From Patescibacteria group bacterium (GTDB lineage: Bacteria > Patescibacteriota > Patescibacteriia > Magasanikbacterales > GWA2-37-8): a stretch of DNA of 64,000 nucleotides. Under the pieces are notes generated by a model. The model was not told where the DNA came from. It saw only the letters and a program-made list of their open reading frames with translations, and made no database searches. The stretch is from positions 183,420 to 247,419 of the forward strand of contig JAQTYG010000001.1 of NCBI GenBank assembly GCA_028688375.1. Reading direction: 5' to 3'. Below are positions 537 through 51,491 of this stretch, in pieces (the stretch's first letter is position 1; every line of letters starts with the position of its first letter). The translations under genes were made by a program, and so were the position numbers.

Positions 537-545
537 AATAAAAGA

Positions 546-1337: not shown

Positions 1338-1350
1338 ACGACTATTTTAT

Positions 1351-2253: not shown

Positions 2254-2255
2254 AT

Positions 2256-4166: not shown

Positions 4167-4167
4167 A

Positions 4168-5103: not shown

Positions 5104-5122
5104 TTTGAGTGGCTCAAATAAA

Positions 5123-6193
5123 TTAGGCCCGCGATTTTTTAGTCTTACTTTTTACAAAATATCTAATTTTAAAATCTTCTAAAAATTTAATCATTTTAAA
5201 TGGACGATATAATCTCGCCAAAAATTTCTTTATGGCGTTTCGCCTTTTAATATATTTTGCTACAATTTTCTCGTATTTTTCCAATTCAACTGCTTTCGCG
5301 GGATTGATATTTCTCCGCCCGGCCGAATTAAACGGTTGATCTATGATGTGTTTTAAAAATTCCTCGAAACCCATTCTCACGGCGGCAAAATTATAGCCCG
5401 GTACAGTTACCGGCTCATTAATAATGCTCAAATATAAGTCATCATTATTATCGACTTCCTTAACTCGTTCTACTACTTGATCGAAAGTAGCATAACGGTG
5501 ACAATTGATAAAGCGTTTTTCGTTAAACTCTTTACCTATTTCAGGATTACCCCAATAAATCGGGATCGTTCTTGCCGCCAATGAACTAACTATTTTTTCT
5601 GTGGTATATCCAAAATTGGAAGAATTTTCGAAAGCAACGGAAAATTTATGTTTTGTCTCAAATTCTAATTTATTCTCCACTCTACGACCAATATTATTCA
5701 GACAGCGACCGCCAGCATTTACTTTTTTATAGTTACTTAGTTTATCGAAAAAAATTTTTCGGGCTGGACCGGCGAGATAATTTGAATAAACAAAACTGCA
5801 AAAATCCGTTTTCTTTAATAAATCCTGTTTAGTAAACCGATTCGTTTCTTTAAAATCGGTATCAATACCCAAAGCCAGCTCATCCCTGTGGTAAAAAACA
5901 TCTATTAAATACCACGGCAGCCTATAATATCTATCTCGAAAATTTAAATAATCATAGCCAACGGCGTAGTCACACAAATTAAAATTGGGGTGAACATTCT
6001 CTCCGGTATAAAATATTTTTATACAACCATCATATTTTAAGTGTTGAAAAGATGAATCATTAAAAAATACATATTCCGGTTTTTCTGAAAATTCAACATC
6101 GTAATATTTTTTTAATATTTTATAAATAAAATGCTCTCGTAACTCATCGTCGCGCTTATTAAATTCGCAAATTTTGATTCGAATTTTTTTCAT
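5123..6193 (-). CDS. Alpha-1,3-fucosyltransferase-like glycosyltransferase (GT10)
   Basis: HKFSVAFENSSNFGYTTEKIVSSLAARTIPIYWG matches the conserved GT10 FucT motif FxxAFENSxxxxYxTEK followed by the PVxxG block. Confidence 0.6.
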   Translation of the reverse strand: MKKIRIKICEFNKRDDELREHFIYKILKKYYDVEFSEKPEYVFFNDSSFQHLKYDGCIKIFYTGENVHPNFNLCDYAVGYDYLNFRDRYYRLPWYLIDVFYHRDELALGIDTDFKETNRFTKQDLLKKTDFCSFVYSNYLAGPARKIFFDKLSNYKKVNAGGRCLNNIGRRVENKLEFETKHKFSVAFENSSNFGYTTEKIVSSLAARTIPIYWGNPEIGKEFNEKRFINCHRYATFDQVVERVKEVDNNDDLYLSIINEPVTVPGYNFAAVRMGFEEFLKHIIDQPFNSAGRRNINPAKAVELEKYEKIVAKYIKRRNAIKKFLARLYRPFKMIKFLEDFKIRYFVKSKTKKSRA

Positions 6194-6194
6194 A

Positions 6195-7154
6195 TTATTT
6201 TATAATCGCGATAATTTGGTTCAAATATTTTTCGTCCCGGCACTCTTCGGGGTTGCGCTCGTTAATTTCATTAAAATATTTAAACGGCACTTTTACTTGT
6301 TTATCCGCTTTGCGCGAAAACATTTCATACTCCATATCTATGTGGCCGATATCAATCACGCGATACCCTAATTTAAACAAATCATAAGCCAAAACTTTAG
6401 CCGTAGGTCCCAATGAAATTAATATCAATTTATCTTTACCGATTTTTATTACCTCATTTTTTATGGCTTCATACTTATCGTAAGCGTCGGTTGGCGGACA
6501 CAATATCCGTTGCAAGGATTTAACATTATCAAATAAATTGTTCCCCACACCCAAACGGCTTTTCTCGCCTTCAATCAAAACCACATCCTTATCTTCCCAA
6601 ATGGAGAATAATTTTTTAAATCTTTCCGCGGCTTTGGATTTATCTTTGAACGCCAAATAAAAGCGCGTCATTCCGGTATTGCCATATGTTCGATCAAACG
6701 ATAACGCACTTTTCCAGGCCGGCCCGTATCTATATATATGATGTACGCCAAACCGATAAGCGTAATATTCCTGCCAATCCTGTCTTTCCCACATATCCGG
6801 AAGCGTAAATAAAAGGCCGTTAACATCGGTTTTTAAAATCATTTCCAACTTTGCCGCCAAATCGGCATCGTATCGTTGGAAACCTAAATCCAAACCGTCG
6901 ATCAAAGAAATCTCACCGTCGCCAAAGCGTATCACGGAGAGATTTTTCTGAATTATTAGATCAATGGTGTCATCCACTGACAATACACGGGGGCGTTTAC
7001 GATTCGGCCGAAAATAGATATTGAAATAATATAAAGCAAAAGCCAGACGCCAACCGATTATTTGGCGAATTTTTAACGGCGTGACGCCTCTTATTGTCTG
7101 AACAATTGATTGGATTAACGTTCTTTTCATAAAATACCCGGAACTTCTAATCAA
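6195..7154 (-). CDS. Putative glycosyltransferase (DUF1792/GT-D-like)
   Basis: RFGDGEISLIDG (DXE-containing) motif and about 320 aa size resemble GT-D/DUF1792 proteins; overlaps neighbours in an operon. Low certainty without an HMM search. Confidence 0.35.
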   Translation of the reverse strand: MIRSSGYFMKRTLIQSIVQTIRGVTPLKIRQIIGWRLAFALYYFNIYFRPNRKRPRVLSVDDTIDLIIQKNLSVIRFGDGEISLIDGLDLGFQRYDADLAAKLEMILKTDVNGLLFTLPDMWERQDWQEYYAYRFGVHHIYRYGPAWKSALSFDRTYGNTGMTRFYLAFKDKSKAAERFKKLFSIWEDKDVVLIEGEKSRLGVGNNLFDNVKSLQRILCPPTDAYDKYEAIKNEVIKIGKDKLILISLGPTAKVLAYDLFKLGYRVIDIGHIDMEYEMFSRKADKQVKVPFKYFNEINERNPEECRDEKYLNQIIAIIK

Positions 7155-7981: not shown

Positions 7982-8884
7982 TTAGTTAAAAATATCGCGA
8001 AAAAAATCTACCGTTTGACGGAATCCTTCGCGCCAATTAGTAGCGGCTTGCCAATCAATTTTTTTATTATTTGACAAATCCGCGTGAGAATCCATTATTT
8101 CATCTTTTCGGTAGTCCAATTTACCGAATTGTAAAGACGTTCCACTGTTCGTAATTTCTTTCAAATATTCCACGGCTTCCTTAATAGAAACAGAGCCGCC
8201 GCTGCCGATGCCGAATTCTTCAAAATTTGATAAATTGCTTTGGTGGGTATGCGCGTTAAAAAACGCTTGAGCCACATCGTTAACGAACACGAAGTCGCGT
8301 TTTTGTTCACCGTTTGTTAACGGAATATTTTCAACTTCATTCAACAACTCTTTAACAATGGAGGGGACAAATTTTTTCAGGCCATCATTCGGTCCATACA
8401 TCTGTTCTATTCTTAAATTAAAAAATTTCATTTTGAGATATCTCGTGGCGCGTTTCGCAATGACTAAAAAATTTTTCTTAGTTTCAACATAATAATTTTC
8501 GTTATTCTCAAAAAGTATTTTTTCGTTAAAAAAAGTGTCGGCATTTATAAAACAGCCCACCTTCGCTTTTTCGCCAGCTACTAAAAGGCGGAGGGGAAGA
8601 AGTAAATTTGCTTCTGCTATCTCCGACCACGCCTCCCTCTCCCTGCCATAACAGGTGGCTACGTGAATAATAGTACTGACATCGTATTGGGAAAAACATT
8701 TTTCCACCTCAAATTTATCTAAAGATACCACAACTAACCCAGGGTGATTGGCAAACTTTTTAAGACGCGACGACGAAGAATCGTCGCGAGCCAAAATAAC
8801 CGTGCGATAGCCGTTGGCCAAAAATAATTCCACTATTTTCGAACCAAGGAAGCCGGTGCCGCCAGTTATTAAAATGGTTTGCAT
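7982..8884 (-). CDS. NAD(P)-dependent epimerase/dehydratase family (extended SDR)
   Basis: Rossmann motif ILITGGTGFLGSKIV at the N-terminus and YVETKK catalytic YxxxK. Confidence 0.65.
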   Translation of the reverse strand: MQTILITGGTGFLGSKIVELFLANGYRTVILARDDSSSSRLKKFANHPGLVVVSLDKFEVEKCFSQYDVSTIIHVATCYGREREAWSEIAEANLLLPLRLLVAGEKAKVGCFINADTFFNEKILFENNENYYVETKKNFLVIAKRATRYLKMKFFNLRIEQMYGPNDGLKKFVPSIVKELLNEVENIPLTNGEQKRDFVFVNDVAQAFFNAHTHQSNLSNFEEFGIGSGGSVSIKEAVEYLKEITNSGTSLQFGKLDYRKDEIMDSHADLSNNKKIDWQAATNWREGFRQTVDFFRDIFN

Positions 8885-8893: not shown

Positions 8894-9778
8894 TTATTTT
8901 CTTAATCCAATTACTCGTAAAGTGGCCTTGGCTAATTCTTTAAAGGCTACCCAGCAACTGTGCCACAAAAAAAACGCCTCTACTCGATAACGCGGTATAT
9001 CTAAGTCGTAAAAATCGCTGATCCATAGAATACTTTTAATAGTCGCGCGGTTACGCTTTAAATTGGTTTCCAACCCCGTATACGAATCCCAGCGCAAGTT
9101 GTCATTTCGTGTTTTGATTAATGGCTCCGCTAATAACGCAAACCTGCTATCTTTAAAAACATTTAACAAAATAAAAAAATGAACAATGTTGGTGCCAATA
9201 AAAATTTCTTTATTGGCAAAATTTGTCCAAGCTTTTCGGAAAAAAAGCTGCGTAGACATGCTGCTAAAAAATCCCACTAAATCCATATAATTTTTAATGG
9301 ATTTAACAAAATCTGACAAATTGGGATAGACGATATCTTGAGTGATCTGATGATTAGGGAAGGGTAGGACGGGGTTTTTCAGCCAATGGTCATAGCCCCA
9401 ACAATTAAGCATGAGGTACGGAGCTCTGATCGTTTTAATTTTTTGAATTATGACTGAAAAACTTTCCGGGAAAAAAGCGTCGTCGTCGCCAATGGTTAGA
9501 CAATATTCTCCCGAACTTTTCTCTACTGCTTTTAATAAATTGCGATCAAAACCTATATTTTTTTCATTTCTAAAAAATTTAATATTACTAAATTTCTTTT
9601 GGAAACTTTCTACCAGGGAGGCGGTTCCGTCCGTACTGGCGTTGTCGCAAATCACAACTTCGACCTGTTCGAACAGATCTCTGTCTTTAAACTGAGAAAC
9701 GATACTTTCTAAATTTTCTTTTAGGCACTCCGCCCGATTAAGGGTGGGTATACAGATGCTTAAGACCGGATTTTCCAT
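8894..9778 (-). CDS. Glycosyltransferase family 2
   Basis: LSICIPTLNRAECLKENLESIVSQ...VVICDNASTDGT is a classic GT2 N-terminus. Confidence 0.75.
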   Translation of the reverse strand: MENPVLSICIPTLNRAECLKENLESIVSQFKDRDLFEQVEVVICDNASTDGTASLVESFQKKFSNIKFFRNEKNIGFDRNLLKAVEKSSGEYCLTIGDDDAFFPESFSVIIQKIKTIRAPYLMLNCWGYDHWLKNPVLPFPNHQITQDIVYPNLSDFVKSIKNYMDLVGFFSSMSTQLFFRKAWTNFANKEIFIGTNIVHFFILLNVFKDSRFALLAEPLIKTRNDNLRWDSYTGLETNLKRNRATIKSILWISDFYDLDIPRYRVEAFFLWHSCWVAFKELAKATLRVIGLRK

Positions 9779-9831: not shown

Positions 9832-11784
9832 TTATTCAATATATCGTTCTTTAATTTTATGCTGGCCGTGAAAAAATTTCCCCCCTTTTCTTCCATACCA
9901 AATAATTTCTCTGGCATAAGAGGGTAAATCTCCGCCGAATTCTTCAATATCATGAAAAAGGAGCTTATTTTTTTTATAAACCAAACTGGGTTTATCGGTT
10001 CCACGATAAAACTCATTAAAATACTTGTTGAAATCCCAATTTAAATCCAATTCCGAGGCAGAACGGCGAAAAGGATCAATCAACATTTTGGCGGAATATT
10101 TTATGAGATCGGAAATTTTTTCCTCTTCCTCTTTTCCAAAGTACGATGACAGATATTTTTTTAATTCTTCATAAAATCTTTCTTTGGCTACGATGATATT
10201 GAGAAATGAGCCTTCTTCCGTGGGCCAGCTAATGGCGCCAAATTTTTCAATCACGAATTCCCAGCTTCCACCGTTTATAACACCGTCGATAATACGGGAA
10301 ATTAGGTTCACTTCACGGCCAATAATAGACCCCGGAGAATTCTCGCCGTGTTTTATTAAATCATTATAAAATTGCGCATAAGAAATAGAGCGCTCATTGT
10401 GAGCGAATATGGCGGCGTGTTGCGTTAAGCCTAAACAATGAAAGCACTGAACGGCCCAAGAAAAAATACACGATTTTTTCCAATCTTCCGTAGACATCGC
10501 ATTTGTGCCAATCACAATTTCATCATACTCCTGAATATTATTCGCGCTGGGCACGGAATGAGAGAGGACGGCGGGTACACGCACGGATTTGATGCCGTAA
10601 AATTCTTTATATTTTTTATCACCCATCAAAGAATTGGGTAAAATTTCGCAATTATACACGTTGATTGAGCTGTGTTGTCCGTTTACCAAAAGAGTATCGA
10701 GCCCGGCGCAAAAAGTATCGCGAGATTCGTTAGGTAATCCTAAAATAATTTCCGTGTAAGTTGAGATATTCTCGTTGTTATATTGCCGGAGTAGCTCCTT
10801 GAAATTGTCTATGCGCAAGTTGATTCTTCCCACCGCCTTTAGAGTTTCGGCGTTTAAACTCTGAAATGACAGAGTGACACCCTTGCACATTTTATTTTCA
10901 TTAAGCTTTTTATTCATTTCAAAAATAGCCTGATTGCTATTTTTAGCATAAGCGGTTCTAAATTTCTTCGGAAAATCGTATTTATTTTTAATTTCAATAA
11001 ACTTATCAACAAAATCGTTGTCTCGTTGCAAAATACCGAAATTCGAATCACACCCCATAACAAATTCAATTTTATTTTTACCGAACCACTCTATTTCGTC
11101 CTTCACTCGCTGTTCGTCAAAAGGGACGATGGTTTTGCAATTTGTTAGGGGCGACCCCCAATCACAATAGGCGCAGCCATATGGGCAGCCCCGATTGGTT
11201 TCCAAACTGGCGGTAAAAGAATAAGGTAGTTTTATTATGCCATCAAAAACTCCGCTTAAATACGGGGACGGAATTTTATTGATATTAATTTTTTTCTGTT
11301 CTTTCTTAGTTTTAAAGGTTTCTCCACCCAAGTTAACGCTCAAATTGCTAATTCTGCGAAAATCTTTACCGGGCGAGAGAAGAGCTAATAATATTTCAGC
11401 GAAAGCAACCTCTCCATCACCATGTACTAAAATATCAACATAATTATGCCGCGCGAAAAAATTTTCTGATTCAAAAGGAATCTGGTGGCCGCCAAACACC
11501 ACCAAACAGCTCGGATATTTGGATTTTACCGCCTCTGCTAATTTTTTATTATACTCGAAATTCCAAATATACGAAGATAGGCCCAGAACCTTCGGATCGT
11601 TCAATTTCTTCACCACAATCTCAATATCTTCTTTTAAAAATAAAGGGGGGTTAAATTCGAAATTCTCTCTCAAACCATCAATCGAGAGGCAATAGCTCGC
11701 AATCATGCCGACAGAATAAGGCAAAAAGACGTTGTTGCCGTATTTGTCGCCAACCTGTCCCAAATAAACGTTTCTTTTTTCCAT
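9832..11784 (-). CDS. B12-binding domain radical SAM protein (class B radical SAM, likely C-methyltransferase or related)
   Basis: N-terminal cobalamin-binding-like segment (VVFGGHQIPFE...DILVHGDGEVAF) followed by NRGCPYGCAYCDWGS (CxxxCxxC radical SAM cluster motif); 650 aa. Confidence 0.7.
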   Translation of the reverse strand: MEKRNVYLGQVGDKYGNNVFLPYSVGMIASYCLSIDGLRENFEFNPPLFLKEDIEIVVKKLNDPKVLGLSSYIWNFEYNKKLAEAVKSKYPSCLVVFGGHQIPFESENFFARHNYVDILVHGDGEVAFAEILLALLSPGKDFRRISNLSVNLGGETFKTKKEQKKININKIPSPYLSGVFDGIIKLPYSFTASLETNRGCPYGCAYCDWGSPLTNCKTIVPFDEQRVKDEIEWFGKNKIEFVMGCDSNFGILQRDNDFVDKFIEIKNKYDFPKKFRTAYAKNSNQAIFEMNKKLNENKMCKGVTLSFQSLNAETLKAVGRINLRIDNFKELLRQYNNENISTYTEIILGLPNESRDTFCAGLDTLLVNGQHSSINVYNCEILPNSLMGDKKYKEFYGIKSVRVPAVLSHSVPSANNIQEYDEIVIGTNAMSTEDWKKSCIFSWAVQCFHCLGLTQHAAIFAHNERSISYAQFYNDLIKHGENSPGSIIGREVNLISRIIDGVINGGSWEFVIEKFGAISWPTEEGSFLNIIVAKERFYEELKKYLSSYFGKEEEEKISDLIKYSAKMLIDPFRRSASELDLNWDFNKYFNEFYRGTDKPSLVYKKNKLLFHDIEEFGGDLPSYAREIIWYGRKGGKFFHGQHKIKERYIE

Positions 11785-11801
11785 AGTTTAACTTGCGCAA
11801 T

Positions 11802-13115
11802 CTAAATTTTTACGGACAACTCAATAAAATCGTTCAAATTATCCGCGATATAATCAATCATTTCTCGATTAATCAACGGACCGACACCGATCCAAAAACT
11901 GTTCGCCATGATAAAATCGGTGTTTTGCAGCGCTTCAGCGATCCGATGACCGCAATTATCGCCAATAAAATACGGTTGTTTAGTAATATTCCCCGCAAAA
12001 AGTAATCTGGTGCCGATTTTTTTATCATTTAAATATTTCAATAATTTCGTTCTGTCAATCCCTGTGTTTTCTTTGATGGTTAATATAAATCCGAACCAAC
12101 TGGGATTAGCGCTCGGTAGACATCGGGGTAAAATAAAATAGTTATTAAACCTGCTTAACTGTTCTGATAAAAATTTAAAATTTTCACGTCGCTTGCTAAC
12201 AAAAGTGTTTATTTTTTTCATTTGGGCCAAACCCAACGCCGCCTGGATATCGGTCATTTTTAAATTATATCCCATCTCGCTATAAATATACTTGTGGTCA
12301 TAGCCGTGAGGTAAATTACCCAATTGCCAATTAAATCTGTTTTTGCAGGTGTCATCTTTTCCGGTTGGACACCAGCAATCTCTCCCCCAATCTCTAAAAG
12401 ATCTGATGATTTTATTTAGCAAAGCATCGTTCGTCAGCACCGCTCCGCCTTCGGCGGTAGTGATATGGTGGGCGGGATAAAAACTCAGGGTTGAAATATG
12501 GCCATAACTACCGGTTTTTTTCTGTTTATATTCCGAACCCAAAGCATCGCAGTTGTCTTCGATGAGCCACAACTTTTTTTCTTCGCAGAATTTAGCGACG
12601 CTATCGATTTCGTATGGATTACCCAGAGTATGAGCGATGAAGACGGCTTTTGTTTTTTCAGAAAAAGCTTTTTTGATAGATTCTAAACTTGGATTATAGG
12701 AACCGATTTCCACGTCTACAAATACCGGAATCAACCCGTTCTGTATAATCGGATTAATCGTCGTGGGAAAACCGGCGGCGACGGTAATCACTTCGTCACC
12801 CGGTTTTAATCTTTTGCTTTCCGGTAACTTTTTCGAGGTGAGCGCGGTTAAGGCCAATAGATTCGCCGATGATCCGGAATTAACCAAGGAACAAAAATTA
12901 ACTCCAACGTAGGAAGCCAGCTCCGATTCTAACCTCGCCGAATACTCGCCTTCCGTCCACCAACCTTCCAATACCGCTTCAATCGCCAGAATTAACTCCT
13001 GCTCATCGAAAACCTTACCTGAAATAGGCACGGCCGATTGTCCGGGGATAAATTTTTTTTCGGGAAACCTTTCTTTAAATTCCTGAATTATGTTTTTTTT
13101 CAATTCGTCTCTCAT
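11802..13115 (-). CDS. rfbH: CDP-6-deoxy-D-xylo-4-hexulose 3-dehydrase (E1, RfbH/DdhC family; PMP-dependent DegT/AHBA-synthase fold with [2Fe-2S] motif)
   Basis: 437 aa (canonical RfbH length); SLVNSGSSANLLAL and the Lys-containing region; C-x-C-x7-C iron-sulfur motif DCWCPTGKDDTC characteristic of E1. Confidence 0.75.
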   Translation of the reverse strand: MRDELKKNIIQEFKERFPEKKFIPGQSAVPISGKVFDEQELILAIEAVLEGWWTEGEYSARLESELASYVGVNFCSLVNSGSSANLLALTALTSKKLPESKRLKPGDEVITVAAGFPTTINPIIQNGLIPVFVDVEIGSYNPSLESIKKAFSEKTKAVFIAHTLGNPYEIDSVAKFCEEKKLWLIEDNCDALGSEYKQKKTGSYGHISTLSFYPAHHITTAEGGAVLTNDALLNKIIRSFRDWGRDCWCPTGKDDTCKNRFNWQLGNLPHGYDHKYIYSEMGYNLKMTDIQAALGLAQMKKINTFVSKRRENFKFLSEQLSRFNNYFILPRCLPSANPSWFGFILTIKENTGIDRTKLLKYLNDKKIGTRLLFAGNITKQPYFIGDNCGHRIAEALQNTDFIMANSFWIGVGPLINREMIDYIADNLNDFIELSVKI

Positions 13116-13123
13116 ATTATTTA

Positions 13124-14005
13124 TCAGATAAAAAATTTATTAATATCCAACTTTTGGCATATCTTTTCGTAGTATGCGAACATCTCGGCAATCGCCTCTC
13201 GAAAATCAGTATAATCAATCGGGCCAAATTCATTCATAAATTTCTTGATATCACCGGAGTACTCACGGTTCAGCCCGTTTTCTATAATTTTGATGTCTGT
13301 TTTATTGCCACCATATTCGTTGATAATATTGGCTAAAGACAAAAGATCGATCGTTTGCCCGCGGCCGATATTATAACAGATGCTGGCTGGCTTTACGGTT
13401 ATGAACCGTTCTAAAATTTTTACCAAATCTTTGATAAAGATATAATCGAAATAAACGTTTTTTTTAATCACAATCGGCAAACCAAGAATTTTTCTACAAA
13501 TTGCGTTAGAAATAAATCTAGTTTCATAATCTTCATATTTACCGAAGATGCCAAAAAAACGGAGATGGGTAATCTTATGGTTATTTTCGGCAATTTTTGC
13601 CATTACAAATTTTGCCAAACCATATTCATCAACCGGAATACTTCGGCCAAAACATTCTTCAGAAATTAGATGCAGATCTTTTCTCTTGTCGTATTCTGCT
13701 CCGGAGCCAAAAACAATCATCCGTTTAAAGTATGCCTCGGTATTTAACAAATTAAAATACATTAATAAATTCTTTTGCAAAATACCGGGAAGATTATTCG
13801 TATTTCTATTTCCCCCAACAGTGGCAGCGTGGATAACCAGATCTGGCTGATTTATTTTCATAAAATTCAACACCGCCTCGGTATCTAGCAAATCCAGAGC
13901 GTCTTCATCGGGTGATAAAAATTCGTATTTAGCCCCTAAAATTTCTAATATATTTTTCCCTAAAAAGCCGCTTCCACCGGTTAGAAAAATTTTTAATTTA
14001 GGCAT
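13124..14005 (-). CDS. NAD(P)-dependent sugar 4-ketoreductase/epimerase (extended SDR; RfbJ/RfbS/Rmd-like)
   Basis: KIFLTGGSGFLGKNI Rossmann motif and YGLAK catalytic motif; 293 aa; position between E1 and the transketolase-like genes. Confidence 0.55.
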   Translation of the reverse strand: MPKLKIFLTGGSGFLGKNILEILGAKYEFLSPDEDALDLLDTEAVLNFMKINQPDLVIHAATVGGNRNTNNLPGILQKNLLMYFNLLNTEAYFKRMIVFGSGAEYDKRKDLHLISEECFGRSIPVDEYGLAKFVMAKIAENNHKITHLRFFGIFGKYEDYETRFISNAICRKILGLPIVIKKNVYFDYIFIKDLVKILERFITVKPASICYNIGRGQTIDLLSLANIINEYGGNKTDIKIIENGLNREYSGDIKKFMNEFGPIDYTDFREAIAEMFAYYEKICQKLDINKFFI

Positions 14006-14928
14006 AGAGGTATGATTTTTTGTTCAATTTTTTGAGCGGATAACCCGGCTTGATCGCGCATGTAATCCTGCGTGCCAATAAAATTAAAATACTTATCTTC
14101 GACACCCAATCGTACCAATTTAATATTAAGATTTTCTTCAGCGATAATTTCCGCCATGGTCGAACCTAACCCCCCCAAAATAGTGTGTTCTTCAACCGTG
14201 ATCACCGAGTGGCGATTTCGCAAAATATCTACTATTTTTTCTCTGTTAATCGGTTTTAAAAAGGGACAACTATAAAGTGCCACATTCTCCCCTCTTTCGA
14301 CTAAATCGCTGGCGGCCCTATAGGCTTCTGACAATATGCTACCGCAAGAAAAAATCGCCACGCCGCCGTTCTTTTTATTCTTATAAATCTCCACCAAATC
14401 TCCTAATTTGATACTCTCATAATCCAAATTACTAATAACATTTTTTTCTCCGCCACGATTTAGCCTGATATAACTTGGCCCGCCGGTTATCACCGCTTTT
14501 TTTATTACTTGGACTGCTTCGTTCGGATCGGCCGGACACATTACCTTCATGTTAGGCAGGGCTCTCATGATAGCCAGATCCTCCACGGCGTTATGGGTCG
14601 TGCCTGAAGTGCCATAAGCGAAACCGCCTCCTACGCCAAGAATCGTCACATCCAAATTCTGATAACACAAATCCACTCTAATCTGTTCAAAGCATCTCAT
14701 GATGGCGAACGGAGCGATACTATAAAGAAACACTTTTTTACCACTTAATGCTAAGCCGGCCGCTACACCGATCATATTTTGTTCAGCGATTCCAATATTA
14801 AAAAACCTATCCGGAAATTCCATTTTAAATTTCTCCACCACCGAATAACCCAAATCGGCGGTTATTAAAATAATATCCTGATTCTTCCGCGCTTCTCCAA
14901 TAATATATTCTACGACAGTATTTCTCAT
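13993..14928 (-). CDS. Transketolase-like protein, C-terminal (pyrimidine-binding/C-terminal domain) subunit of a split transketolase
   Basis: 311 aa; ILITADLGYSV...GIAEQNMIGVAAGLALSGKK resembles the transketolase Pyr/C-terminal half; overlaps upstream partner; a canonical full-length tkt exists at 49248..51491. Confidence 0.7.
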   Translation of the reverse strand: MRNTVVEYIIGEARKNQDIILITADLGYSVVEKFKMEFPDRFFNIGIAEQNMIGVAAGLALSGKKVFLYSIAPFAIMRCFEQIRVDLCYQNLDVTILGVGGGFAYGTSGTTHNAVEDLAIMRALPNMKVMCPADPNEAVQVIKKAVITGGPSYIRLNRGGEKNVISNLDYESIKLGDLVEIYKNKKNGGVAIFSCGSILSEAYRAASDLVERGENVALYSCPFLKPINREKIVDILRNRHSVITVEEHTILGGLGSTMAEIIAEENLNIKLVRLGVEDKYFNFIGTQDYMRDQAGLSAQKIEQKIIPLCLN

Positions 14929-14930
14929 AA

Positions 14931-15743
14931 TTAAGATTCGAGCTCTTTTAAAGCTTGCCTATATTGTTCATCGGAAGGGCTCTTGTAATGCCAATCGACT
15001 GAGTTTTCCATAAAACTCACGCCTTTGCCTTTTGTTGTTTTGGCAATTATTACTAAGGGGCGAGAACTATTATTAGACCGGCCCAAAGCGGTCGTTAATT
15101 CCATATAATCATGACCGCTAGTTTCGCGCACTTCGCAGCCAAAAGCCCTGAATTTATCCGCTAAATTATCTTGCGAAATAATCTCTCTTGATTCGCCCAT
15201 ACCCTGTTGATTATTAAAATCAATAATTATTGTTAAATTATCCAATCGCTTCTGCACTGCAAACATTGTCGCCTCCCACACGGAGCCCTCGTCGCACTCG
15301 CCATCACCCATCAAACAAAATATTTTTCTGTTACTATTTTTATCAATTTTCGCCCCTAAGGCCAGTCCGGTGGCGATCGGGAGTCCATGACCCAATGAAC
15401 CGGAAGAGATTTCAATTCCCGGGATACTGCCTCTAATTACATGGCCGGCAAATTGCGTTCCATCAGCGGCGTACTTGTCAATAACGGTGGTATCGCAGAA
15501 ACCGGACTCGACTAAAATTGCATAAAGCGCTACAGCCGCATGGCCCTTACTTAAAATAAAAATATCGCGGTTGTGCGCTTCCGTGTTGTTCGGGTTGATG
15601 TTCATCACTTCAAAATATAGAGCTACAAGTATTTCCACAATGCTAAAACACGAACCGATGTGTGAATTTTTCGTACGATAAATCGCCCGCAAAATATTTT
15701 TTCGGATATTCACCGCTCTTTTTTTAAAATCATCGTACGGCAT
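14931..15743 (-). CDS. Transketolase-like protein, N-terminal (thiamine diphosphate-binding) subunit of a split transketolase
   Basis: GHIGSCFSIVEILVALY, LSKGHAAVALYA, GSLGHGLPIATGLALG and GDGECDEGSVWEA (ThDP/Mg binding GDG...E...N-like block). Confidence 0.7.
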   Translation of the reverse strand: MPYDDFKKRAVNIRKNILRAIYRTKNSHIGSCFSIVEILVALYFEVMNINPNNTEAHNRDIFILSKGHAAVALYAILVESGFCDTTVIDKYAADGTQFAGHVIRGSIPGIEISSGSLGHGLPIATGLALGAKIDKNSNRKIFCLMGDGECDEGSVWEATMFAVQKRLDNLTIIIDFNNQQGMGESREIISQDNLADKFRAFGCEVRETSGHDYMELTTALGRSNNSSRPLVIIAKTTKGKGVSFMENSVDWHYKSPSDEQYRQALKELES

Positions 15744-15759
15744 AATTTAAAATACCATG

Positions 15760-16833
15760 TTATTCGCCGAAATATTCCGCGATCTGGCTGTCCGTAAATT
15801 TACTCGGATCTTCTTTCCCGCCATAAAATTTCTCATACCAACTAAAAGTCTTTTCCAAACTCTGGGTCAAACTCCACTTAGGATGCCAGTCTAATAAAAT
15901 ACCCGCCTTGCTCGCGTCTAATTTAAGCAAATTAGCTTCATGCTTAGAGGCATCTTCAGCAACTTCGAAAACGCCTTGTTGTAATATGGAAATGCCTTTT
16001 TCGACTAATTCTTCAACACGCACGAGGCCGTCCTCTCCGGGACCAAAATTCCAGGCGCCGGACAAGTCTCCATGACCGACAAACATTTTTTTGCCAAGCA
16101 ACAAATAACCGCCCAGCGGTTCTAACACATGTTGCCACGGTCTAACCGCTTTAGGATTTCTAATTATCACCGATTCTTTACGCTCAAAAATTGCTCTAAC
16201 CATATCAGGAATCAATCGATCTCTGGCCCAATCACCCCCGCCGATAACATTGCCGGCTCTGGCGACAGCCACTAAAGTGTCGTGCTTTTGGCCAAAGTCG
16301 CTTGGATTAAAAAACGATCTTATATAGGAGCTCGTCACAATGTCCGCCGCGGCCTTACTCGCACTATATGGGTCATAACCCCCAAGCGCATCCGTTTCTT
16401 TATAAGGATAGTCCTGCTCTTTATTTTCATAAACTTTATCAGTGGTAATAATTACTGCCGATTTCACTCCGCCGGCTTCTTTAATCGCCTGTAAAATATT
16501 AGCCGTACCAATAATATTGGTGGAGAAGGTGGCTAGCGGGTCATCGTAGCTATCCCGAACAATTGGCTGAGCCGCCAGATGAAAAACTATTTCCGGTTTT
16601 TCTATCTCAAAAATATTCTTGATTTTGTTAAAATCACGGATATCGGTAAAATAATTTTTCTTTATTTTTCCAGCCAATTCTAATGTTTCAAACAAGTTAG
16701 GCGCAGTGTCTGGCGGTAAAGAAACACCGACGACTGTCGCGCCCCAATTGACAAGAATCCGGGTTAACCACGAACCTTTGAATCCCGTGTGACCGGTGAT
16801 TAAGATTTTTTTACCACAATAAAATTCTTTCAT
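15760..16833 (-). CDS. rfbG: CDP-glucose 4,6-dehydratase
   Basis: FYCGKKILITGHTGFKGSWLTRILVNWGATVVGVSLPPDT is the hallmark RfbG/DdhB N-terminus; 357 aa. Confidence 0.8.
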   Translation of the reverse strand: MKEFYCGKKILITGHTGFKGSWLTRILVNWGATVVGVSLPPDTAPNLFETLELAGKIKKNYFTDIRDFNKIKNIFEIEKPEIVFHLAAQPIVRDSYDDPLATFSTNIIGTANILQAIKEAGGVKSAVIITTDKVYENKEQDYPYKETDALGGYDPYSASKAAADIVTSSYIRSFFNPSDFGQKHDTLVAVARAGNVIGGGDWARDRLIPDMVRAIFERKESVIIRNPKAVRPWQHVLEPLGGYLLLGKKMFVGHGDLSGAWNFGPGEDGLVRVEELVEKGISILQQGVFEVAEDASKHEANLLKLDASKAGILLDWHPKWSLTQSLEKTFSWYEKFYGGKEDPSKFTDSQIAEYFGE

Positions 16834-16843
16834 ATTATTTATA

Positions 16844-17635
16844 CTAATCCCAAATTTTCCAAAAAGGGTCCTTATGCCAATGTTCGTTCATTTCCTCAAC
16901 TTCTTTATGCGTATCCATGCACTTCCATTTTCCGTCATGACAAAAGACAGATAATTGGCCGGATTTAGCCAGTTTTGGGAATACGCTTTCAATCATGCTA
17001 TCCGGTTCGATCATATCCAATACCTCTCGCTTAAAAACCATAAAACCGCCGTTAATCAAATTTTTTTCCGCGGAGGGCTCCTCTTCAGCGGTTACTTTAT
17101 GTTGAGAAAAATCAACCACTTTCTTGGCCTCACGATCGATATCTAAATAGCCAAAACGGCTAGCCGGTCGAACCGCAGTTATGGTGGCAATAGTATTTTG
17201 GTTTTGATGAAATTTTACTAATTCGGGTATATTTACATCCGCCACCCCATCCCCATAAGTAACCATAAAATAATCGTCGGAGCCGATATAGTTTTTTAAA
17301 CGTCTAATTCTTTCACCGGTTAAACTATCCGTACCGGTTTCAGCGAACACTATCCTAAAGTCATCGCAATCATTGTTGTGGAATGTCGTAGCGCCGGTTT
17401 TAGTATCAAGTGTAAAATCGTTCACAAATGCCCGCCAGTTCAAAAAATAATCTTTAATCATGTTGCTCTTGTAGCCGAGCGCTAAAATAAAATCATTAAA
17501 GCCGTAATGCGCGTATATCTTCATGATATGCCAAAGGATCGGCTTTCCGCCGACTTCCACCAAAGGCTTGGGTTTAAATTCCGTTTCCTCCTTCATACGA
17601 GTGCCCGTGCCGCCACAAAGTATAATGGTTTTCAT
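16844..17635 (-). CDS. rfbF: Glucose-1-phosphate cytidylyltransferase
   Basis: MKTIILCGGTGTRMKEETEFKPKPLVEVGGKPILWHIMKIY is the hallmark RfbF/DdhA N-terminus; 263 aa. Confidence 0.8.
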   Translation of the reverse strand: MKTIILCGGTGTRMKEETEFKPKPLVEVGGKPILWHIMKIYAHYGFNDFILALGYKSNMIKDYFLNWRAFVNDFTLDTKTGATTFHNNDCDDFRIVFAETGTDSLTGERIRRLKNYIGSDDYFMVTYGDGVADVNIPELVKFHQNQNTIATITAVRPASRFGYLDIDREAKKVVDFSQHKVTAEEEPSAEKNLINGGFMVFKREVLDMIEPDSMIESVFPKLAKSGQLSVFCHDGKWKCMDTHKEVEEMNEHWHKDPFWKIWD

Positions 17636-18516
17636 ATGATAGATAACTTCTTTTTAATAAATAAATTAATATTTTTTATCATTATGATCAAGCCAATGAG
17701 CGCTCTGTTGAATACGAATAATGTGCTTGTTCTTTGGTGCAAATATTTTATTTTTAAATTATCCAAATGCGTATAGCTCAACCTTAATTGCCAAATATAC
17801 TGTTCTGAAGAACGGTTGTTCTCGCCATGATACAAATCTAACGGCTGAATCTTGACTTCATTATTAAAATATTTTCTAAAAAATATATTTACTAGAGTCA
17901 TATCGTGTCGAAAAATCTCGCAATCTCTACTAAATATATTTTTATCCTTACCTTTATTTCTCCACTGATCGTTTGGTGAAAAACCAAGAGCCAGGCCCGC
18001 TCGAGCTGAATCGTAAATTTTTTTAAATATTTCGCTAATCCTGGGAGTGTTTTTAAAACCAATTATGCCCGCGTGAACTACAGTTAGACCATCATACCGT
18101 TCATCCAAATCAAAAATCGATTTATAACTGGTTGGCACAATTTTTTTAAACAATTGTTCTTGATCAATCAAAAGCACGTCTTCCTGTTCAATGACGGAGA
18201 AAACCTCGTCTAATGATCTTAAAACTTGGCACCCAGCATCGAGATAAAAATTTAACCGCGCTAAAGGATGGGCAAAAATATAGGCCTTCCAAGTATAGCA
18301 GCCTCGCCAATGATGGCAAAATTCCGGCATTTTTACTACCTTGACATTATCAACCGACTCAAGTTCTCGGCGAAAAATCGGCAATAAGCCGAGGTCATAA
18401 ACAAAAATAGTCGGGTGATTCGGATAAATCAATTTTATCGAGGATAACAAATTTATTACTGAGGGAAAAAATTTGTTTGAAGCAGAAGTTATAATCGCTT
18501 TTTCTAACATAAACAA
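17632..18516 (-). CDS. Hypothetical protein, possibly a nucleotide-diphospho-sugar transferase-like glycosyltransferase
   Basis: ATGA overlap with rfbF start (translational coupling); no confident motif. Confidence 0.3.
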   Translation of the reverse strand: MFMLEKAIITSASNKFFPSVINLLSSIKLIYPNHPTIFVYDLGLLPIFRRELESVDNVKVVKMPEFCHHWRGCYTWKAYIFAHPLARLNFYLDAGCQVLRSLDEVFSVIEQEDVLLIDQEQLFKKIVPTSYKSIFDLDERYDGLTVVHAGIIGFKNTPRISEIFKKIYDSARAGLALGFSPNDQWRNKGKDKNIFSRDCEIFRHDMTLVNIFFRKYFNNEVKIQPLDLYHGENNRSSEQYIWQLRLSYTHLDNLKIKYLHQRTSTLFVFNRALIGLIIMIKNINLFIKKKLSII

Positions 18517-25277: not shown

Positions 25278-25282
25278 AATAT

Positions 25283-26347: not shown

Positions 26348-26360
26348 AAAATAATTATGA

Positions 26361-37115: not shown

Positions 37116-37217
37116 TTTTTAGCTATTATAATCCGCCCGTTTAGGAACGGGCAACGAACATGGCCCGTTCGTCTATCAGTTAGGACACGGCCCTCTCAAG
37201 GCTGAAAGACGGGTGCG

Positions 37218-37236
37218 ATTCCCGTACGGGCTACAA
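37218..37236. repeat. 19 nt direct repeat ATTCCCGTACGGGCTACAA, copy 1 (tRNA-3'-end-like)
   Basis: Identical 19-mer recurs at 37449..37467. Confidence 0.6.
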
Positions 37237-37245
37237 AATTAAAAG

Positions 37246-37270
37246 GTCCAGCGCAAGCTGGGTTTTTTAA
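37246..37270 (+). terminator. Rho-independent terminator CCAGC-GCAA-GCTGG followed by GTTTTTTAATTTT
   Basis: Read directly (GNRA-like tetraloop hairpin plus U-tract). Confidence 0.65.
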
Positions 37271-37296
37271 TTTTGTAATTTGTCCAGGGAATCGCA

Positions 37297-37467: not shown

Positions 37468-37544
37468 CTGGCTTTTTGCTGAGGTTCCAGTTCACCAGCA
37501 CACTTTTTGCCCACTCGCTTTTGGCGGGACGATTTCAAGTTTTT

Positions 37545-49247: not shown

Positions 49248-51491
49248 TTACTTTTCTGGATTCCCGCCTTCGCGGGAATGACAAATATGTACATTTTTTT
49301 TAACGAGGCTCTCCGTGTCCAAACCAGCTTGACCGTAGACTTCCGTCGCTCGGCCGGATTTAAGAAAATGATCCACGCCGATGAGGCGGTTCTGATAACC
49401 GGCCGGTTGGATAAACTCGCGGGTAAATTCATTCCAGCCGTTGTGCAGAGCGATAACAGTGGCCCTTTCTTCATCGGATAAAATGGCTTGCGCTTTTTTC
49501 GGATCGGTTTTTTCCAGTTCCACAAATAATTCCGGCGAAGTGACGACAACGATTTTTACGTCCAATTTTTGTTTGGCTAAATCGGGCAGGGCTAGTAAAA
49601 CATTTTGCAGAAGCGTGGCGCCACAAACCGCCAGCGCGATTTTTTTGCCGGCGCCGGTGTATTCTTTATAGATGTAAGCGCCATCGCAGGCGGATGAGGC
49701 CGGCGTATTTTTTCTGTCTAACACCGGAGTCTCCGAACGGGACAGGGCCAAAACAATCGGCTCGCCTTTCTCCAAAGCGAAAAACAGCATCTCAATTACT
49801 TCATTGGCATCGGTCGGCTTGTAAACTTTTATCCCGGGATAAGCGTCAAACAAAGACATCCAATACATGCCCTGGTGGGTCGGGCCGTCTTCGCCTGTTT
49901 CCGGGCCGTCATGTGTGGCCAGAGCGATAAAAAAGCCCTGTGTAGCCGGATTGGCGGCATTGGCCACCAGCGCCAAATGCACGGCGTGACCATACATAGC
50001 GGTAAAAACGCCGTAAGTGCCGAACACTGATACCGGCCGGAAACCGCCGGGTAAAACATCCTGCGTCAAGGCCATAGACATCATGGCCATATTTTGTTCA
50101 GCGATGCCAAAACGAATGCCCCGGCCGAACTTATTTTGCGCGTTGATGATGCCATAAACATGCTCCGACTGGCCGAGCAAAACCGATTTGCTCAAATCCC
50201 CCGCTCCGGCGTAAAAAAACGCGGTCTGCTCCATCAACCATTTGCACCAGAGCTCGGAGGCCTGGCGCATGCTAATTTTGTCGCCGGGCTTGAAGGCAAG
50301 TTCGGGCGGGAGGTTTTTCGGACGCTTGATGCCACGCGGATTTATCAGCGGACGATTGGGCAAAGTTTTTTTCATCCGCGCTATCAGTTCAGATTCCGGT
50401 TCAATTTTGTCCGCGCCTTTTTCCAATTGCCAATCAATAAACGAAGCATCGTCTTCAGTCAACGCGTCCAAAATCTTTTGAATATCACGGGCGACATTTC
50501 CCTTTTCTCCGGGCGCGCTAAAACCAAGCTGTTTCAAAATTTTTACATAATCTTCATGGTCGGTCGGCGAACCATGCGAGGCAGTGGTGTTTTCTTTGGC
50601 GCCGTATTCTTTGCCTTTGATAGTGTGGGCGATAATTGCTGTCGGCCGGCTGTTGTCAAAACCTTGGCGGGCGATGGCGTAGGCGTAAAGAAGTTCGTTG
50701 ACATTGTGGCCATTTGCTTCAATCACATTCCAACCAAAACCGAGCCAATAATTCAAATACGGCGCGCTCATGGCTTCTTCAATCGGGCCGTCAATACCAA
50801 AATGATTGTAATCAAGTGAGACGATAATATTGTCGGTGGCGGTGGCGACCAAAACATTGCGCGCTTCAAAAGTCATGCCCTCTTCGCTCTCGGCATCGCC
50901 CATCATCACCCAAACTTTGGTCGGCAGACCGCAACTGGCGTGCGCGATAGCCATACCGCCGGCGGCGGAAAAACCATGGCCGGACGGACCGGTGCAATAG
51001 TCGGCATAGGGATATTGGCTTTCGGCATGACCGGGCGGACCGTCCAAACGGCGGAATTGCGACAAGTGTTCGGGCAGAACGCAATTAACCACGGCTTCAG
51101 AAAATTGGCGACCGGCTCGGCGCATGGCTTCATAGTATAGCGCCTGTCCGCCGTACAAAAGCGGGGTGCAGTGGCCGGCGCTCCAAATCAACCGGTCTCG
51201 GCCGGGATGTTTGGGGTCGGCCGGATCAAAGGCCAGCGAACCGCCCAGGGTAAGCGCTAAAAATTGTTCCACTTTGGAGCTACTGCCCCCGGGATGGCCG
51301 GACCGGGCGCCTTCCACGGTGGCAAAAATAAGGCCACGGAGAATTTTGGCCAGACGGTCTAAACGAGAAATGTCTAGGCCGTTATATGGCTCCAATTCAG
51401 CGTCTTGCAATTTAATATATGTAGCGCCGTCGTTTTTTCCGTTTACTGTCAATTTTTTCAGGTCTTTGGCAACAAGGGGGTTAAGGGGCAT
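49248..51491 (-). CDS. tkt: Transketolase (full length, with an approximately 60 aa N-terminal extension)
   Basis: GHPGGS ThDP motif, GDG..EG block, FGIAEQNMAMM pyrimidine-binding region; 747 aa. Confidence 0.8.
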   Translation of the reverse strand: MPLNPLVAKDLKKLTVNGKNDGATYIKLQDAELEPYNGLDISRLDRLAKILRGLIFATVEGARSGHPGGSSSKVEQFLALTLGGSLAFDPADPKHPGRDRLIWSAGHCTPLLYGGQALYYEAMRRAGRQFSEAVVNCVLPEHLSQFRRLDGPPGHAESQYPYADYCTGPSGHGFSAAGGMAIAHASCGLPTKVWVMMGDAESEEGMTFEARNVLVATATDNIIVSLDYNHFGIDGPIEEAMSAPYLNYWLGFGWNVIEANGHNVNELLYAYAIARQGFDNSRPTAIIAHTIKGKEYGAKENTTASHGSPTDHEDYVKILKQLGFSAPGEKGNVARDIQKILDALTEDDASFIDWQLEKGADKIEPESELIARMKKTLPNRPLINPRGIKRPKNLPPELAFKPGDKISMRQASELWCKWLMEQTAFFYAGAGDLSKSVLLGQSEHVYGIINAQNKFGRGIRFGIAEQNMAMMSMALTQDVLPGGFRPVSVFGTYGVFTAMYGHAVHLALVANAANPATQGFFIALATHDGPETGEDGPTHQGMYWMSLFDAYPGIKVYKPTDANEVIEMLFFALEKGEPIVLALSRSETPVLDRKNTPASSACDGAYIYKEYTGAGKKIALAVCGATLLQNVLLALPDLAKQKLDVKIVVVTSPELFVELEKTDPKKAQAILSDEERATVIALHNGWNEFTREFIQPAGYQNRLIGVDHFLKSGRATEVYGQAGLDTESLVKKNVHICHSREGGNPEK
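49256..49283. repeat. REP-like hairpin family A: CTGGATTCCCGCCTTCGCGGGAATGACA
   Basis: Between the tkt stop and the ATPase start; preceded by an 8 bp GC hairpin ACCCCCGA..TCGGGGGT. Confidence 0.65.

Follow-up and report, generated by a model that had tools for sequence, protein, structure and literature searches.

What does a transketolase do in the middle of an operon for a dideoxy sugar, and which sugar does such an operon make? The question is raised by a stretch of 64,000 nucleotides from the genome of a Patescibacteria group bacterium (contig JAQTYG010000001.1, positions 183,420 to 247,419), which we analysed over its full length and call the window. Seven close-packed genes on its minus strand, from 17635 to 9832, encode in the order of transcription a cytidylyltransferase (rfbF), a CDP-glucose 4,6-dehydratase (rfbG), the two subunits of a split transketolase (TK-N and TK-C), a short-chain dehydrogenase/reductase (SDR), a 3-dehydrase (rfbH, hereafter E1) and a B12-binding radical S-adenosylmethionine (SAM) enzyme (B12-rSAM) (Table 1). 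Because the intergenic spacing is only -13 to +17 nt, the seven genes are one operon with no space for hidden genes. A first-pass annotation of this DNA had placed the transketolase halves, the SDR and the B12-rSAM all between rfbG and E1; the first three are indeed there, but the B12-rSAM lies downstream of E1. From the sequences we propose that the operon probably builds an undescribed carbon-branched and/or C-methylated sugar, and we lean slightly towards the view that the split transketolase is the branching enzyme, attaching a two-carbon (C2) unit to a CDP-4-keto sugar.

The entry into the pathway is conventional, and the identities that the first-pass annotation had given to rfbF, rfbG and E1 stood up to profile scores, to structure-sequence scores and to the motifs of E1. 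RfbF scored 277 bits against TIGR02623, slightly below the 300-bit equivalog cut-off, and 211 bits over its full length against the glucose-1-phosphate cytidylyltransferase of Salmonella (1TZF). Scores for RfbG were 468 bits against TIGR02622 (cut-off 278) and 383 bits against the Yersinia enzyme 1RKX, and for E1 671 bits against NF011936 (cut-off 423) and 514 bits against Yersinia E1 (3BCX). In the motif YPAHHIT of E1 a His replaces the catalytic Lys of aminotransferases, and the [2Fe-2S] ligands C-x57-C-x-C-x7-C (that is, C-W-C-x7-C plus an upstream Cys) are found in the motifs EDNCDALG and RDCWCPTGKDDTC; all three motifs align with 3BCX. As securely as sequence evidence allows, RfbF and RfbG are predicted to produce CDP-4-keto-6-deoxy-D-glucose, from which E1, using its Fe-S cluster and pyridoxamine 5'-phosphate (PMP), would remove the 3-OH.

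The two subunits that follow RfbG are a transketolase by fold. TK-N scored 126 bits against PF00456, compared to 31 for DXP_synthase_N, 34 for E1_dh and 30 for TPP_enzyme_C. TK-C consists of Transket_pyr (PF02779) and Transketolase_C (PF02780) with a weak match to PFOR_II, and its affinities are more divided, with 184 bits against the transketolase model and 177 against that of 1-deoxy-D-xylulose 5-phosphate synthase (DXS), whose structures gave 130 bits. Against NF004559 the two halves reached 257 and 184 bits, where the cut-off is 488. Their best structural relative is the characterised split transketolase of Carboxydothermus hydrogenoformans (6YAK/6YAJ; 219 + 197 bits, about 47% identity).

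To locate the differences from canonical transketolases, we made an alignment of E. coli TktA with the C. hydrogenoformans enzyme and 73 concatenated TK-N+TK-C pairs, one from the window and 72 from related loci. The window enzyme keeps the residues that bind thiamine diphosphate (ThDP) and metal and those of catalysis (H26, H66, H100, D155, N185, H261, R358, E411 and H473), and R520 is kept in TK-C too. It carries the changes G262Y, S357M, S432Y, F434I, H461G, L466Y and D469S. The alignment separates into two classes, one canonical with F434/H461/D469 (from Lachnospiraceae, Dehalococcoidia, Bathyarchaeia and C. hydrogenoformans) and a second with I434/G461/L469, in which the window has S469. 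Ten positions separate them cleanly (G262Y, S357M, G377L, N386V, S432Y, F434I, A448D, H461G, L466Y and D469L), nearly all bordering the substrate channel. In transketolases the phosphate of the substrate is bound by H461, and the C2-OH of the acceptor by D469. These residues suggest an enzyme that is catalytically intact and has a rebuilt acceptor site.

The second class is a single clade in a neighbour-joining tree, apart from the canonical split transketolases, and every locus of the tree in which RfbF/RfbG adjoin the transketolase falls within it. In a search of 5.8 billion proteins, the W-H-Y motif was present in 120 of the 120 best TK-N matches. Among the 150 best TK-C representatives (clustered at 50% identity) H461 was lost without exception, G461 took its place in 144, and Y432 and Y466 were almost invariant. 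Position 469 was by comparison hypervariable (L 76, A 24, Q 16, E 8, H 6, others), a pattern that fits a role in tuning acceptor specificity; its residue showed no clean correlation with the presence of E1, loci with E1 having L (S in the window) and loci without it L or Q. A small sister group (L053 and L060) has another acceptor signature, Q434/S461/Y469 with H358 and W520. The clade spans at least 150 clusters at 50% identity, from the Candidate Phyla Radiation (CPR), DPANN, methanogens, Firmicutes, Bacteroidota and Proteobacteria. The first-pass annotation had observed that a canonical full-length transketolase gene exists elsewhere in the window and had denied the split copy a housekeeping role, for which it named phylogeny as a check. 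Both points are borne out: the full-length enzyme agrees with TktA at all 16 residues checked, R358, S385, H461, D469 and R520 among them, if the conservative replacement F434Y is counted, and the split enzyme groups not with housekeeping split transketolases but in this clade, which is specific to glycan clusters. It is thus a transketolase by fold that differs from the canonical enzyme (EC 2.2.1.1) both in its acceptor site and in its place in the tree.

The gene neighbourhoods of the clade tell us what its members work with. The nearest contexts were taken from contigs encoding homologous proteins, while a genome scan with TK-N gave no relative above 49% identity. RfbF/RfbG homologues (39-80% identical) stand beside the transketolase in CPR bacteria (L003, L004 and L005), Micrarchaeota (L010), Burkholderiales (L013, L015, L016, L022 and the cultured Paucibacter hankyongi, L017), a metagenome-assembled genome (MAG) of Clostridia (L009), Christensenella (L023), Methanobacteriaceae (L019), and the cultured Clostridium sporogenes (L095) and Paenibacillus elgii (L096). 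Over the 71 typed loci of the alignment, RfbF/RfbG lay within 10 kb in 13 of the 24 of this class versus 2 of the 47 canonical ones (Fisher p = 3e-6, on loci that are spread over several phyla though not phylogenetically independent), and in both canonical exceptions the distance was at least 7 kb; with independently scanned loci only, p was 1.5e-4. The association is hence non-random. The 13 loci are the window and 12 more of the tree set, to which L095 and L096 come in addition. E1 is an optional part of it: the order RfbF-RfbG-TKN-TKC-SDR is found without E1 in L009, L019, L023 and L095. Of the first-pass proposal of a transketolase module tied to E1, the co-location holds in the window, yet E1 is not essential to the module, as Clostridia, Christensenella and Methanobacteriaceae attest.

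Clade loci without RfbF/RfbG (n = 11) are still polysaccharide loci, with open reading frames (ORFs) matching Bac_transf (6), Epimerase/dehydratase (5) and glycosyltransferase family GT1 (4), and with LicD present. Fusions point to glycans as well: TK-C is joined to a TylC3-type NDP-hexose C-methyltransferase (Methyltransf_23 + Methyltransf_14) in P0296, to another methyltransferase in P0357, and to a GT2 in a gammaproteobacterial MAG (L007). Positions 127-6631 of this last locus hold consecutively a 763-aa fusion of a 4,6-dehydratase-like SDR with DegT, TK-N, the 633-aa TK-C-GT2 fusion and a 491-aa B12-rSAM, a compact fused version of the module. C. sporogenes has, at 5982-20301 of L095, the series RfbF-RfbG-(C-methyltransferase)-SDR-TKN-TKC and a TylC3-like C-methyltransferase, all within an island for flagellar glycosylation and 9 kb upstream of a flagellin gene. 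In a Magasanikbacteria relative (L003, 5271-8828) an acetaldehyde dehydrogenase, a DmpG-type 4-hydroxy-2-oxovalerate aldolase and a ThDP enzyme like YerE, the brancher of yersiniose, belong to the same operon as the transketolase and E1; together they form the set of genes expected where a CPR bacterium makes a long-chain branched sugar of erwiniose type. L003 and L004 carry both enzyme types, so the transketolase is not a simple replacement of YerE, and their clusters would make two distinct branched sugars or one sugar branched twice.

A reductase accompanies the transketolase in all cases, be it from one of several SDR families, an aldo-keto reductase (Bacteroides, Abditibacteriota and Lachnoclostridium) or a fused zinc alcohol dehydrogenase (P0320). 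That of the window, which we call SDR group A, has the motifs TGGSGFLG and YGLAK, is weakly RmlD-like and GDP-fucose-synthase-like, and its start overlaps the stop of TK-C by 13 nt. All five E1 loci that have the transketolase and no E3 reductase (the window, L003, L004, L005 and L010) carry orthologues of it, 38-52% identical, and there is none in L001, an E1 locus without transketolase. We considered SDR group A as a replacement of E3, because it is confined to loci lacking E3, and set the idea aside: it has only the NAD(P) cofactor domain and follows the transketolase rather than E1, as L001 has E1 and no SDR of this group. An SDR of another group (group B), farther downstream in the window, is 35-38% identical to SDRs that come after E1 in L001 and L003.

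These observations can be assembled into a pathway. The two-subunit transketolase would be a specialised ThDP carboligase whose acceptor is a CDP-4-keto-(3,)6-(di)deoxyhexose in place of an aldose phosphate, and the C2 unit would be joined at the C-4 ketone. We favour a glycolaldehyde or hydroxyacetyl donor because the donor-side residues H26, H100, H261 and H473 are kept; a pyruvate-derived acetyl, as in DXS, is less probable. R358 and R520/K could hold the sugar-1-diphosphate, and the loss of H461, D469 and F434 would make space for a pyranose without an alpha-hydroxy aldehyde. The translationally coupled SDR would then reduce the new side-chain ketone, giving a 3,6-dideoxy-4-C-(1,2-dihydroxyethyl or 1-hydroxyethyl)-hexose, a yersiniose-type sugar obtained through a non-homologous enzyme. 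To a sugar of this glycan, possibly the same one, the B12-rSAM would add at least one methyl group at an unactivated carbon.

How E1 obtains its electrons is a separate matter. As the first-pass annotation had reported, there is no E3 in the window: none of its ORFs of at least 150 aa has the Fer2, FAD_binding_6 or NAD_binding_1 domains of this reductase, and tblastn with two bona fide E3 proteins (from L022 and L017) found no match at E ≤ 1 in the 64 kb, nor in the CPR loci L001-L005 or the Micrarchaeota locus L010. Genuine E3 genes lie directly upstream of rfbF in the Burkholderiales loci L013, L016, L017 and L022. P. elgii has E1 with no E3 nearby, and L001 has E1 with neither E3 nor transketolase. 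The absence of E3 near the operon is real, yet it is precedented by SpnQ, an E1-type enzyme that is independent of E3 and served by general ferredoxin/flavodoxin reductase pairs (PMC8987622). Since no E3 is encoded nearby, we propose that the E1 of the window would likewise draw on a general ferredoxin/flavodoxin system.

The last gene of the operon had been annotated at first pass as a possible C-methylase, a view strengthened by its closeness to the proven iterative C-methylases TokK and CysS. It has a B12-binding domain (PF02310, 37.5 bits, cut-off 32.1), a radical SAM domain (PF04055, 37.1 bits, cut-off 29.5) and the CX3CX2C motif as C200-x3-C204-x2-C207 (CPYGCAYC). The match to TokK (7KDX) reached 360 bits over residues 19-571, with about 40% identity over 550 residues; that to CysS reached 174 bits. 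The TokK alignment extends to residue 571 of 650 (588 of 681 in TokK), short of TokK Y652, and conservation falls after residue 450. A match of 278 bits over residues 62-403 to the KedN5-family model NF033712, with its cut-off of 700, points to a family that is sister to KedN5 and not KedN5 itself. In TokK, an iterative carbapenam C-methylase, W76 is the Trp under the corrin and W215 an active-site Trp, both said to be specific to TokK, ThnK and CysS, and R280 binds the substrate carboxylate. The equivalent of W76 (YIWNF) is kept in 116 of 116 homologues and that of W215 (CDWGS) in 114, and the equivalents of R280 and of CX3CX2C are invariant or nearly so in the same set. A role as C-methyltransferase, perhaps an iterative one, is therefore well supported, the predicted target being an sp3 carbon in a substrate that bears an anionic group.

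This family is large (3,902 matches at E ≤ 1e-3, mostly of about 650 aa and many from CPR), and all of its contexts that we examined are glycan clusters. L001 combines a YerE-like enzyme, E1 and the rSAM; L003 combines E1, the transketolase, a YerE-like enzyme and the rSAM. A metagenome scan with the rSAM gave 7 loci only, too few for statistics. Three homologues (P0087, P0099 and P0111) are 991-1123 aa long and have intein, Hint and LAGLIDADG Pfam domains; inteins have therefore been inserted in this radical SAM family. The split transketolase and the rSAM thus both belong to large glycan-associated enzyme families.

Several observations weigh against the pathway drawn above. The companion SDR is most similar to C-4 ketoreductases of the RmlD/GDP-fucose synthase type, and if it reduced C-4 directly no ketone would be left for the transketolase. 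About half of the examined clade members lack RfbF/RfbG within 10 kb, and some of these loci carry an aldo-keto reductase and LicD, which could indicate a polyol-phosphate route. In L003 and L004 the transketolase and the YerE-like enzyme would compete for one intermediate. The retained R358 and R520/K are also compatible with a small phosphorylated acceptor, and rSAM homologues 72% identical to that of the window (L088 and L092) have no E1, transketolase or YerE within 10 kb. Part of this agrees with the main rival explanation, in which the transketolase makes a separate ketol or ketose(-phosphate) that ends in a polyol or a non-sugar substituent (compare the CDP-arabinitol and CDP-glucitol routes), while RfbF, RfbG, E1 and the SDR make an unbranched CDP-3,6-dideoxyhexose. 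The likeness of the SDR to C-4 reductases and the two basic residues, which bind phosphate in canonical transketolases, suit such a route, as do the clade loci of Bacteroides, Abditibacteriota and Lachnoclostridium, where the aldo-keto reductase goes with Bac_transf and sometimes LicD and there is no adjacent 4,6-dehydratase. We nevertheless consider it improbable, given that the tight order RfbF-RfbG-(SDR)-TKN-TKC-(SDR) recurs in at least six phyla, that TK-C is found fused to the NDP-hexose C-methyltransferase and to GT2, that hydroxy-aldehyde phosphate acceptors are hard to reconcile with the loss of H461 and D469, and that genes for a kinase, a phosphatase or a second cytidylyltransferase, as a polyol route would call for, are lacking from the operon.

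The donor could also be other than we favour. If the transketolase used pyruvate, as DXS does and as all known sugar-branching alpha-KADH2 enzymes do (PMC12247030), the module would be a non-homologous replacement of YerE/YerF making a known sugar, yersiniose (3,6-dideoxy-4-C-(1-hydroxyethyl)-hexose). The closeness of TK-C to DXS and the clade-specific G262Y, which adjoins the donor-site residue H261, speak for pyruvate, whereas the PF00456 score of TK-N clearly speaks for a transketolase. H100 and H473, which must change for a transketolase to accept pyruvate, as is known from its engineering, are both invariant here, and we regard the pyruvate option as rather unlikely. Two further explanations were rejected. 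That the split transketolase replaces the missing E3, as an electron source for the Fe-S cluster of E1 in the manner of pyruvate:ferredoxin oxidoreductase (PFOR), could be suspected from its weak PFOR_II match and from the lack of E3 in the window and in the CPR/DPANN relatives with the transketolase beside E1. It has next to no chance of being true and is effectively refuted by gene distribution: the transketolase is not an E3 surrogate because it coexists with E3 and E1 in Burkholderiales and occurs without E1 in Clostridia, Christensenella and methanogens. It has moreover no Fe-S or flavin domain, and L001 does without both proteins; the missing E3 is unrelated to the transketolase. A housekeeping or hitch-hiking pentose-phosphate enzyme, as NCBI's plain annotation 'transketolase' and the identity to a genuine split transketolase might suggest, is very improbable too and was rejected on active-site residues, on the tree and on the second, canonical transketolase in the window; the split enzyme is, besides, translationally coupled to its neighbours and statistically associated with RfbF/RfbG. 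Much closer to an even chance, if still below it, is the idea that the B12-rSAM works outside the dideoxyhexose pathway, on another sugar, on a lipid-linked or polymeric glycan or on an O-methyl group (O-alkyl extension of the CysS/KedN5 type), or that it catalyses a non-methylating rearrangement. Homologues reside in glycan clusters without E1, transketolase or YerE (those 72% identical, and others with 42-44% identity from Rhodospirillaceae and Yanofskybacteria, in the P0040 locus and L087, among other SDR, DegT and glycosyltransferase genes), the gene is flanked by GT2 and GtrA rather than by sugar-nucleotide genes in L001 and L003, and two SAM methyltransferases of the cluster could provide O-methyl groups. 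On the other side, the rSAM gene begins 17 nt after E1 in the same operon, lies within 6 kb of E1 and a ThDP brancher in three CPR loci, and encodes the invariant Arg equivalent to R280 of TokK, which suggests an anionic substrate such as a nucleotide diphosphate; the TokK score and the conserved TokK/CysS-specific Trp make non-methylating chemistry unlikely. The first-pass proposal that ties the rSAM to the module therefore survives as regards the shared operon, but the link is facultative.

A large cluster for a cell-surface glycan, to which the operon contributes the nucleotide-sugar genes, runs on the minus strand over about 546-28511 and has a G+C content of 36-41%, versus 45-52% in the flanks. 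Besides the operon it contains gmd, fcl and genes for a Wzx flippase, several GT2 enzymes, a GT-D, a GT10 fucosyltransferase, a GT1, RmlC-/RmlD-like proteins, two SAM methyltransferases and a 716-aa Wzy_C protein. Window proteins are 100% identical to the NCBI entries MDD2757943.1 and MDD2757947.1 (Patescibacteria group bacterium MAG, contig of 281 kb), and their closest relatives are from Candidatus Magasanikbacteria. Scans for promoters and terminators inside the operon gave nothing above chance. A Pfam scan of the window genes found no RmlA/RmlB or other dTDP-glucose pathway genes, and the RmlC-/RmlD-like pair may be a second branch from the CDP-4-keto intermediate, similar to AscE/AscF, giving an L-configured CDP sugar.

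Table 1. Positions of the operon genes, of neighbours and of comparator genes in the window, with the models or structures behind each assignment.
Feature	Assignment	Position	Strand	Basis
rfbF	Glucose-1-phosphate cytidylyltransferase; predicted product CDP-glucose	16844..17635	-	TIGR02623, PF00483, 1TZF
rfbG	CDP-glucose 4,6-dehydratase; predicted product CDP-4-keto-6-deoxy-D-glucose	15760..16833	-	TIGR02622, Yersinia 1RKX
TK-N	Split transketolase, N-terminal PP-domain subunit; glycan-cluster 'W-H-Y / IGL' clade	14931..15743	-	PF00456, 6YAK
TK-C	Split transketolase, C-terminal subunit (Pyr + C domain); rebuilt acceptor pocket	13993..14928	-	PF02779 + PF02780
SDR group A	Extended SDR, companion of the transketolase; predicted ketoreductase (branch carbonyl or C-4)	13124..14005	-	PF01370
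rfbH / E1	PMP- and [2Fe-2S]-dependent CDP-4-keto-6-deoxyglucose 3-dehydrase	11802..13115	-	NF011936, 3BCX
B12-rSAM	650 aa, TokK/ThnK/CysS type; predicted sp3 C-methyltransferase, maybe iterative	9832..11784	-	PF02310 + PF04055
GT2	Downstream of the rSAM gene; module membership uncertain	8894-9778	-	Pfam
SDR group B	Possible paratose/abequose-synthase-type CDP-3,6-dideoxyhexose 4-reductase; module membership uncertain	7982-8884	-	Pfam
RmlC-like gene		23690-24217	-	PF00908
RmlD-like gene		22828-23697	-	PF04321
Full-length transketolase	Canonical, 747 aa, housekeeping type; comparator outside the module	49248..51491	-	PF00456, PF02779, PF22613

Other parts of the window deserve a brief mention. 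At 5123-6193 and 24321-28511 the GT10 enzyme (an alpha-1,3-fucosyltransferase), gmd, fcl and the Wzy_C protein, which is O-antigen-ligase-like, occur together in this CPR genome, and a fucosylated surface polymer is therefore implied. Two genes of the cluster have no Pfam or NCBIfam match, one of 636 aa (2256-4166) and one of 294 aa (17632-18516), the latter standing between wzx and rfbF, the expected place of a Wzy polymerase. Just beyond the cluster, in DNA of higher G+C, two big ORFs of 717 aa (31016-33169) and 842 aa (33582-36110) have no Pfam match at E ≤ 1e-5. An island of low G+C (36-39%) at 37162-42134 adjoins a tRNA-Glu(ctc) gene (37162-37234) and encodes an M78 (IrrE-like) peptidase, a lysin-like CHAP+SH3 protein, a GmrSD_N+HNH nuclease, an EcoRI-type adenine methylase and Hypoth_Ymh; it looks like an integrated defence or restriction-modification island or a prophage remnant.

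To our knowledge, YerE-like and alpha-KADH2 enzymes are the only ones for which biochemistry has established a ThDP-dependent C-branching of keto sugars. What we predict as new is that a distinct and widespread clade of transketolases, embedded with a rebuilt acceptor pocket in CDP-sugar operons of bacteria and archaea, also branches sugars. Our boldest proposal, which we regard as doubtful, is that this W-H-Y clade is a third and perhaps the commonest enzymatic route to C-branching of nucleotide sugars, and that in the window its product is further C-alkylated by the TokK-like rSAM, yielding a C-branched, C-methylated or C-ethylated 3,6-dideoxyhexose with an E1 independent of E3. If true, this would be a class of monosaccharide known from no glycan. 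The gene combination was described in none of the literature that we searched, in agreement with the first-pass annotation; nor did this search, which left most subscription journals outside, turn up a description of a transketolase in CDP-sugar, O-antigen, capsule or flagellar glycosylation loci, or of a TokK-like enzyme in glycan clusters. A link between the pneumococcal cps locus or CDP-arabinitol and a transketolase proved unsupported in Bentley 2006 or elsewhere, and a mention of a Clostridium butyricum transketolase concerned the pentose-phosphate enzyme and was irrelevant. If the clade branches sugars as predicted, CPR and DPANN organisms, about whose envelopes next to nothing is known, would bear new monosaccharides at their surfaces. 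The transketolase clade could offer new biocatalysts for chiral tertiary alcohols, and the glycan-associated TokK-like family points to radical C-alkylation of sugars beyond antibiotic pathways. Cultured carriers can serve as test systems, among them C. sporogenes with its flagellin glycan, P. elgii and Paucibacter hankyongi.

Known systems offer comparisons for E1 and for the B12-rSAM. By sequence the window E1 is a full member of the E1 family of the E1/E3 systems (AscC/AscD, RfbH/RfbI), with His for Lys and four Cys ligands. In the classical CDP pathway, and likewise in the relatives from Burkholderiales, the E3 gene immediately precedes rfbF; it is missing from the window and from the CPR, DPANN and Paenibacillus relatives, an E1 without a dedicated reductase nearby being a condition shared with SpnQ (PMC8987622). 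The B12-rSAM shares the CX3CX2C motif and probably the three-domain architecture with TokK, ThnK, CysS and KedN5, and it has both of the Trp residues described for TokK. The four known enzymes act on carbapenam, aryl O-methyl and enediyne precursors in antibiotic clusters, whereas the family of the window enzyme is found in glycan clusters, mostly of CPR.

For the transketolase, likeness of logic and likeness of sequence lie with different systems. The fold and the ThDP, metal and catalytic residues are those of E. coli TktA and of the C. hydrogenoformans enzyme, and with the latter it shares the two-subunit organisation; canonical transketolases, however, stand in central metabolism, and the window clade stands in glycan biosynthesis with H461, D469, F434, S357, S432 and L466 replaced. 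The predicted logic is that of YerE/YerF (yersiniose) and of ErwE-type systems, in which CDP-4-keto-3,6-dideoxy-D-glucose, the product of RfbF/RfbG/E1, receives a carbon unit at C-4 from a ThDP enzyme, and the ketone so introduced becomes the substrate of a reductase (PMC12247030), and in the CPR locus L001 a YerE-like gene takes the equivalent place; but YerE and ErwE are single-chain TPP_enzyme_N/M/C proteins of the decarboxylase superfamily with 2-keto acid donors, compared to a transketolase fold in two subunits here. Alpha-KADH2 enzymes (AviB1/B2, KbDH-alpha/beta) are, like the window enzyme, heterodimeric and ThDP-dependent, and they extend NDP-keto sugars by a C2 branch, either at C-3 or at C-4 (PMC12247030); they differ in their E1_dh-type alpha subunit, their dTDP sugars, their pyruvate donor and their place in antibiotic clusters. 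Pillarose, a 4-C-glycolyl sugar, was dropped as a precedent for a transketolase, since the review assigns it to an alpha-KADH2 enzyme followed by oxidation (PMC12247030). The nearest proposal is that split-gene transketolases of the miharamycin, amipurimycin and 13 Streptomyces clusters, all from Streptomycetes, transfer a hydroxyacetyl unit to a keto sugar, which has never been demonstrated (PMC12247030). Those are likewise two-gene transketolases in sugar-modifying clusters, set apart by their descriptions, as they belong to actinomycete secondary metabolism and the window clade to surface-glycan loci of many phyla with CDP-glucose genes. By its sequence, then, the split transketolase of the window is not a member of the YerE-like or alpha-KADH2 families, and would be at most their functional analogue.

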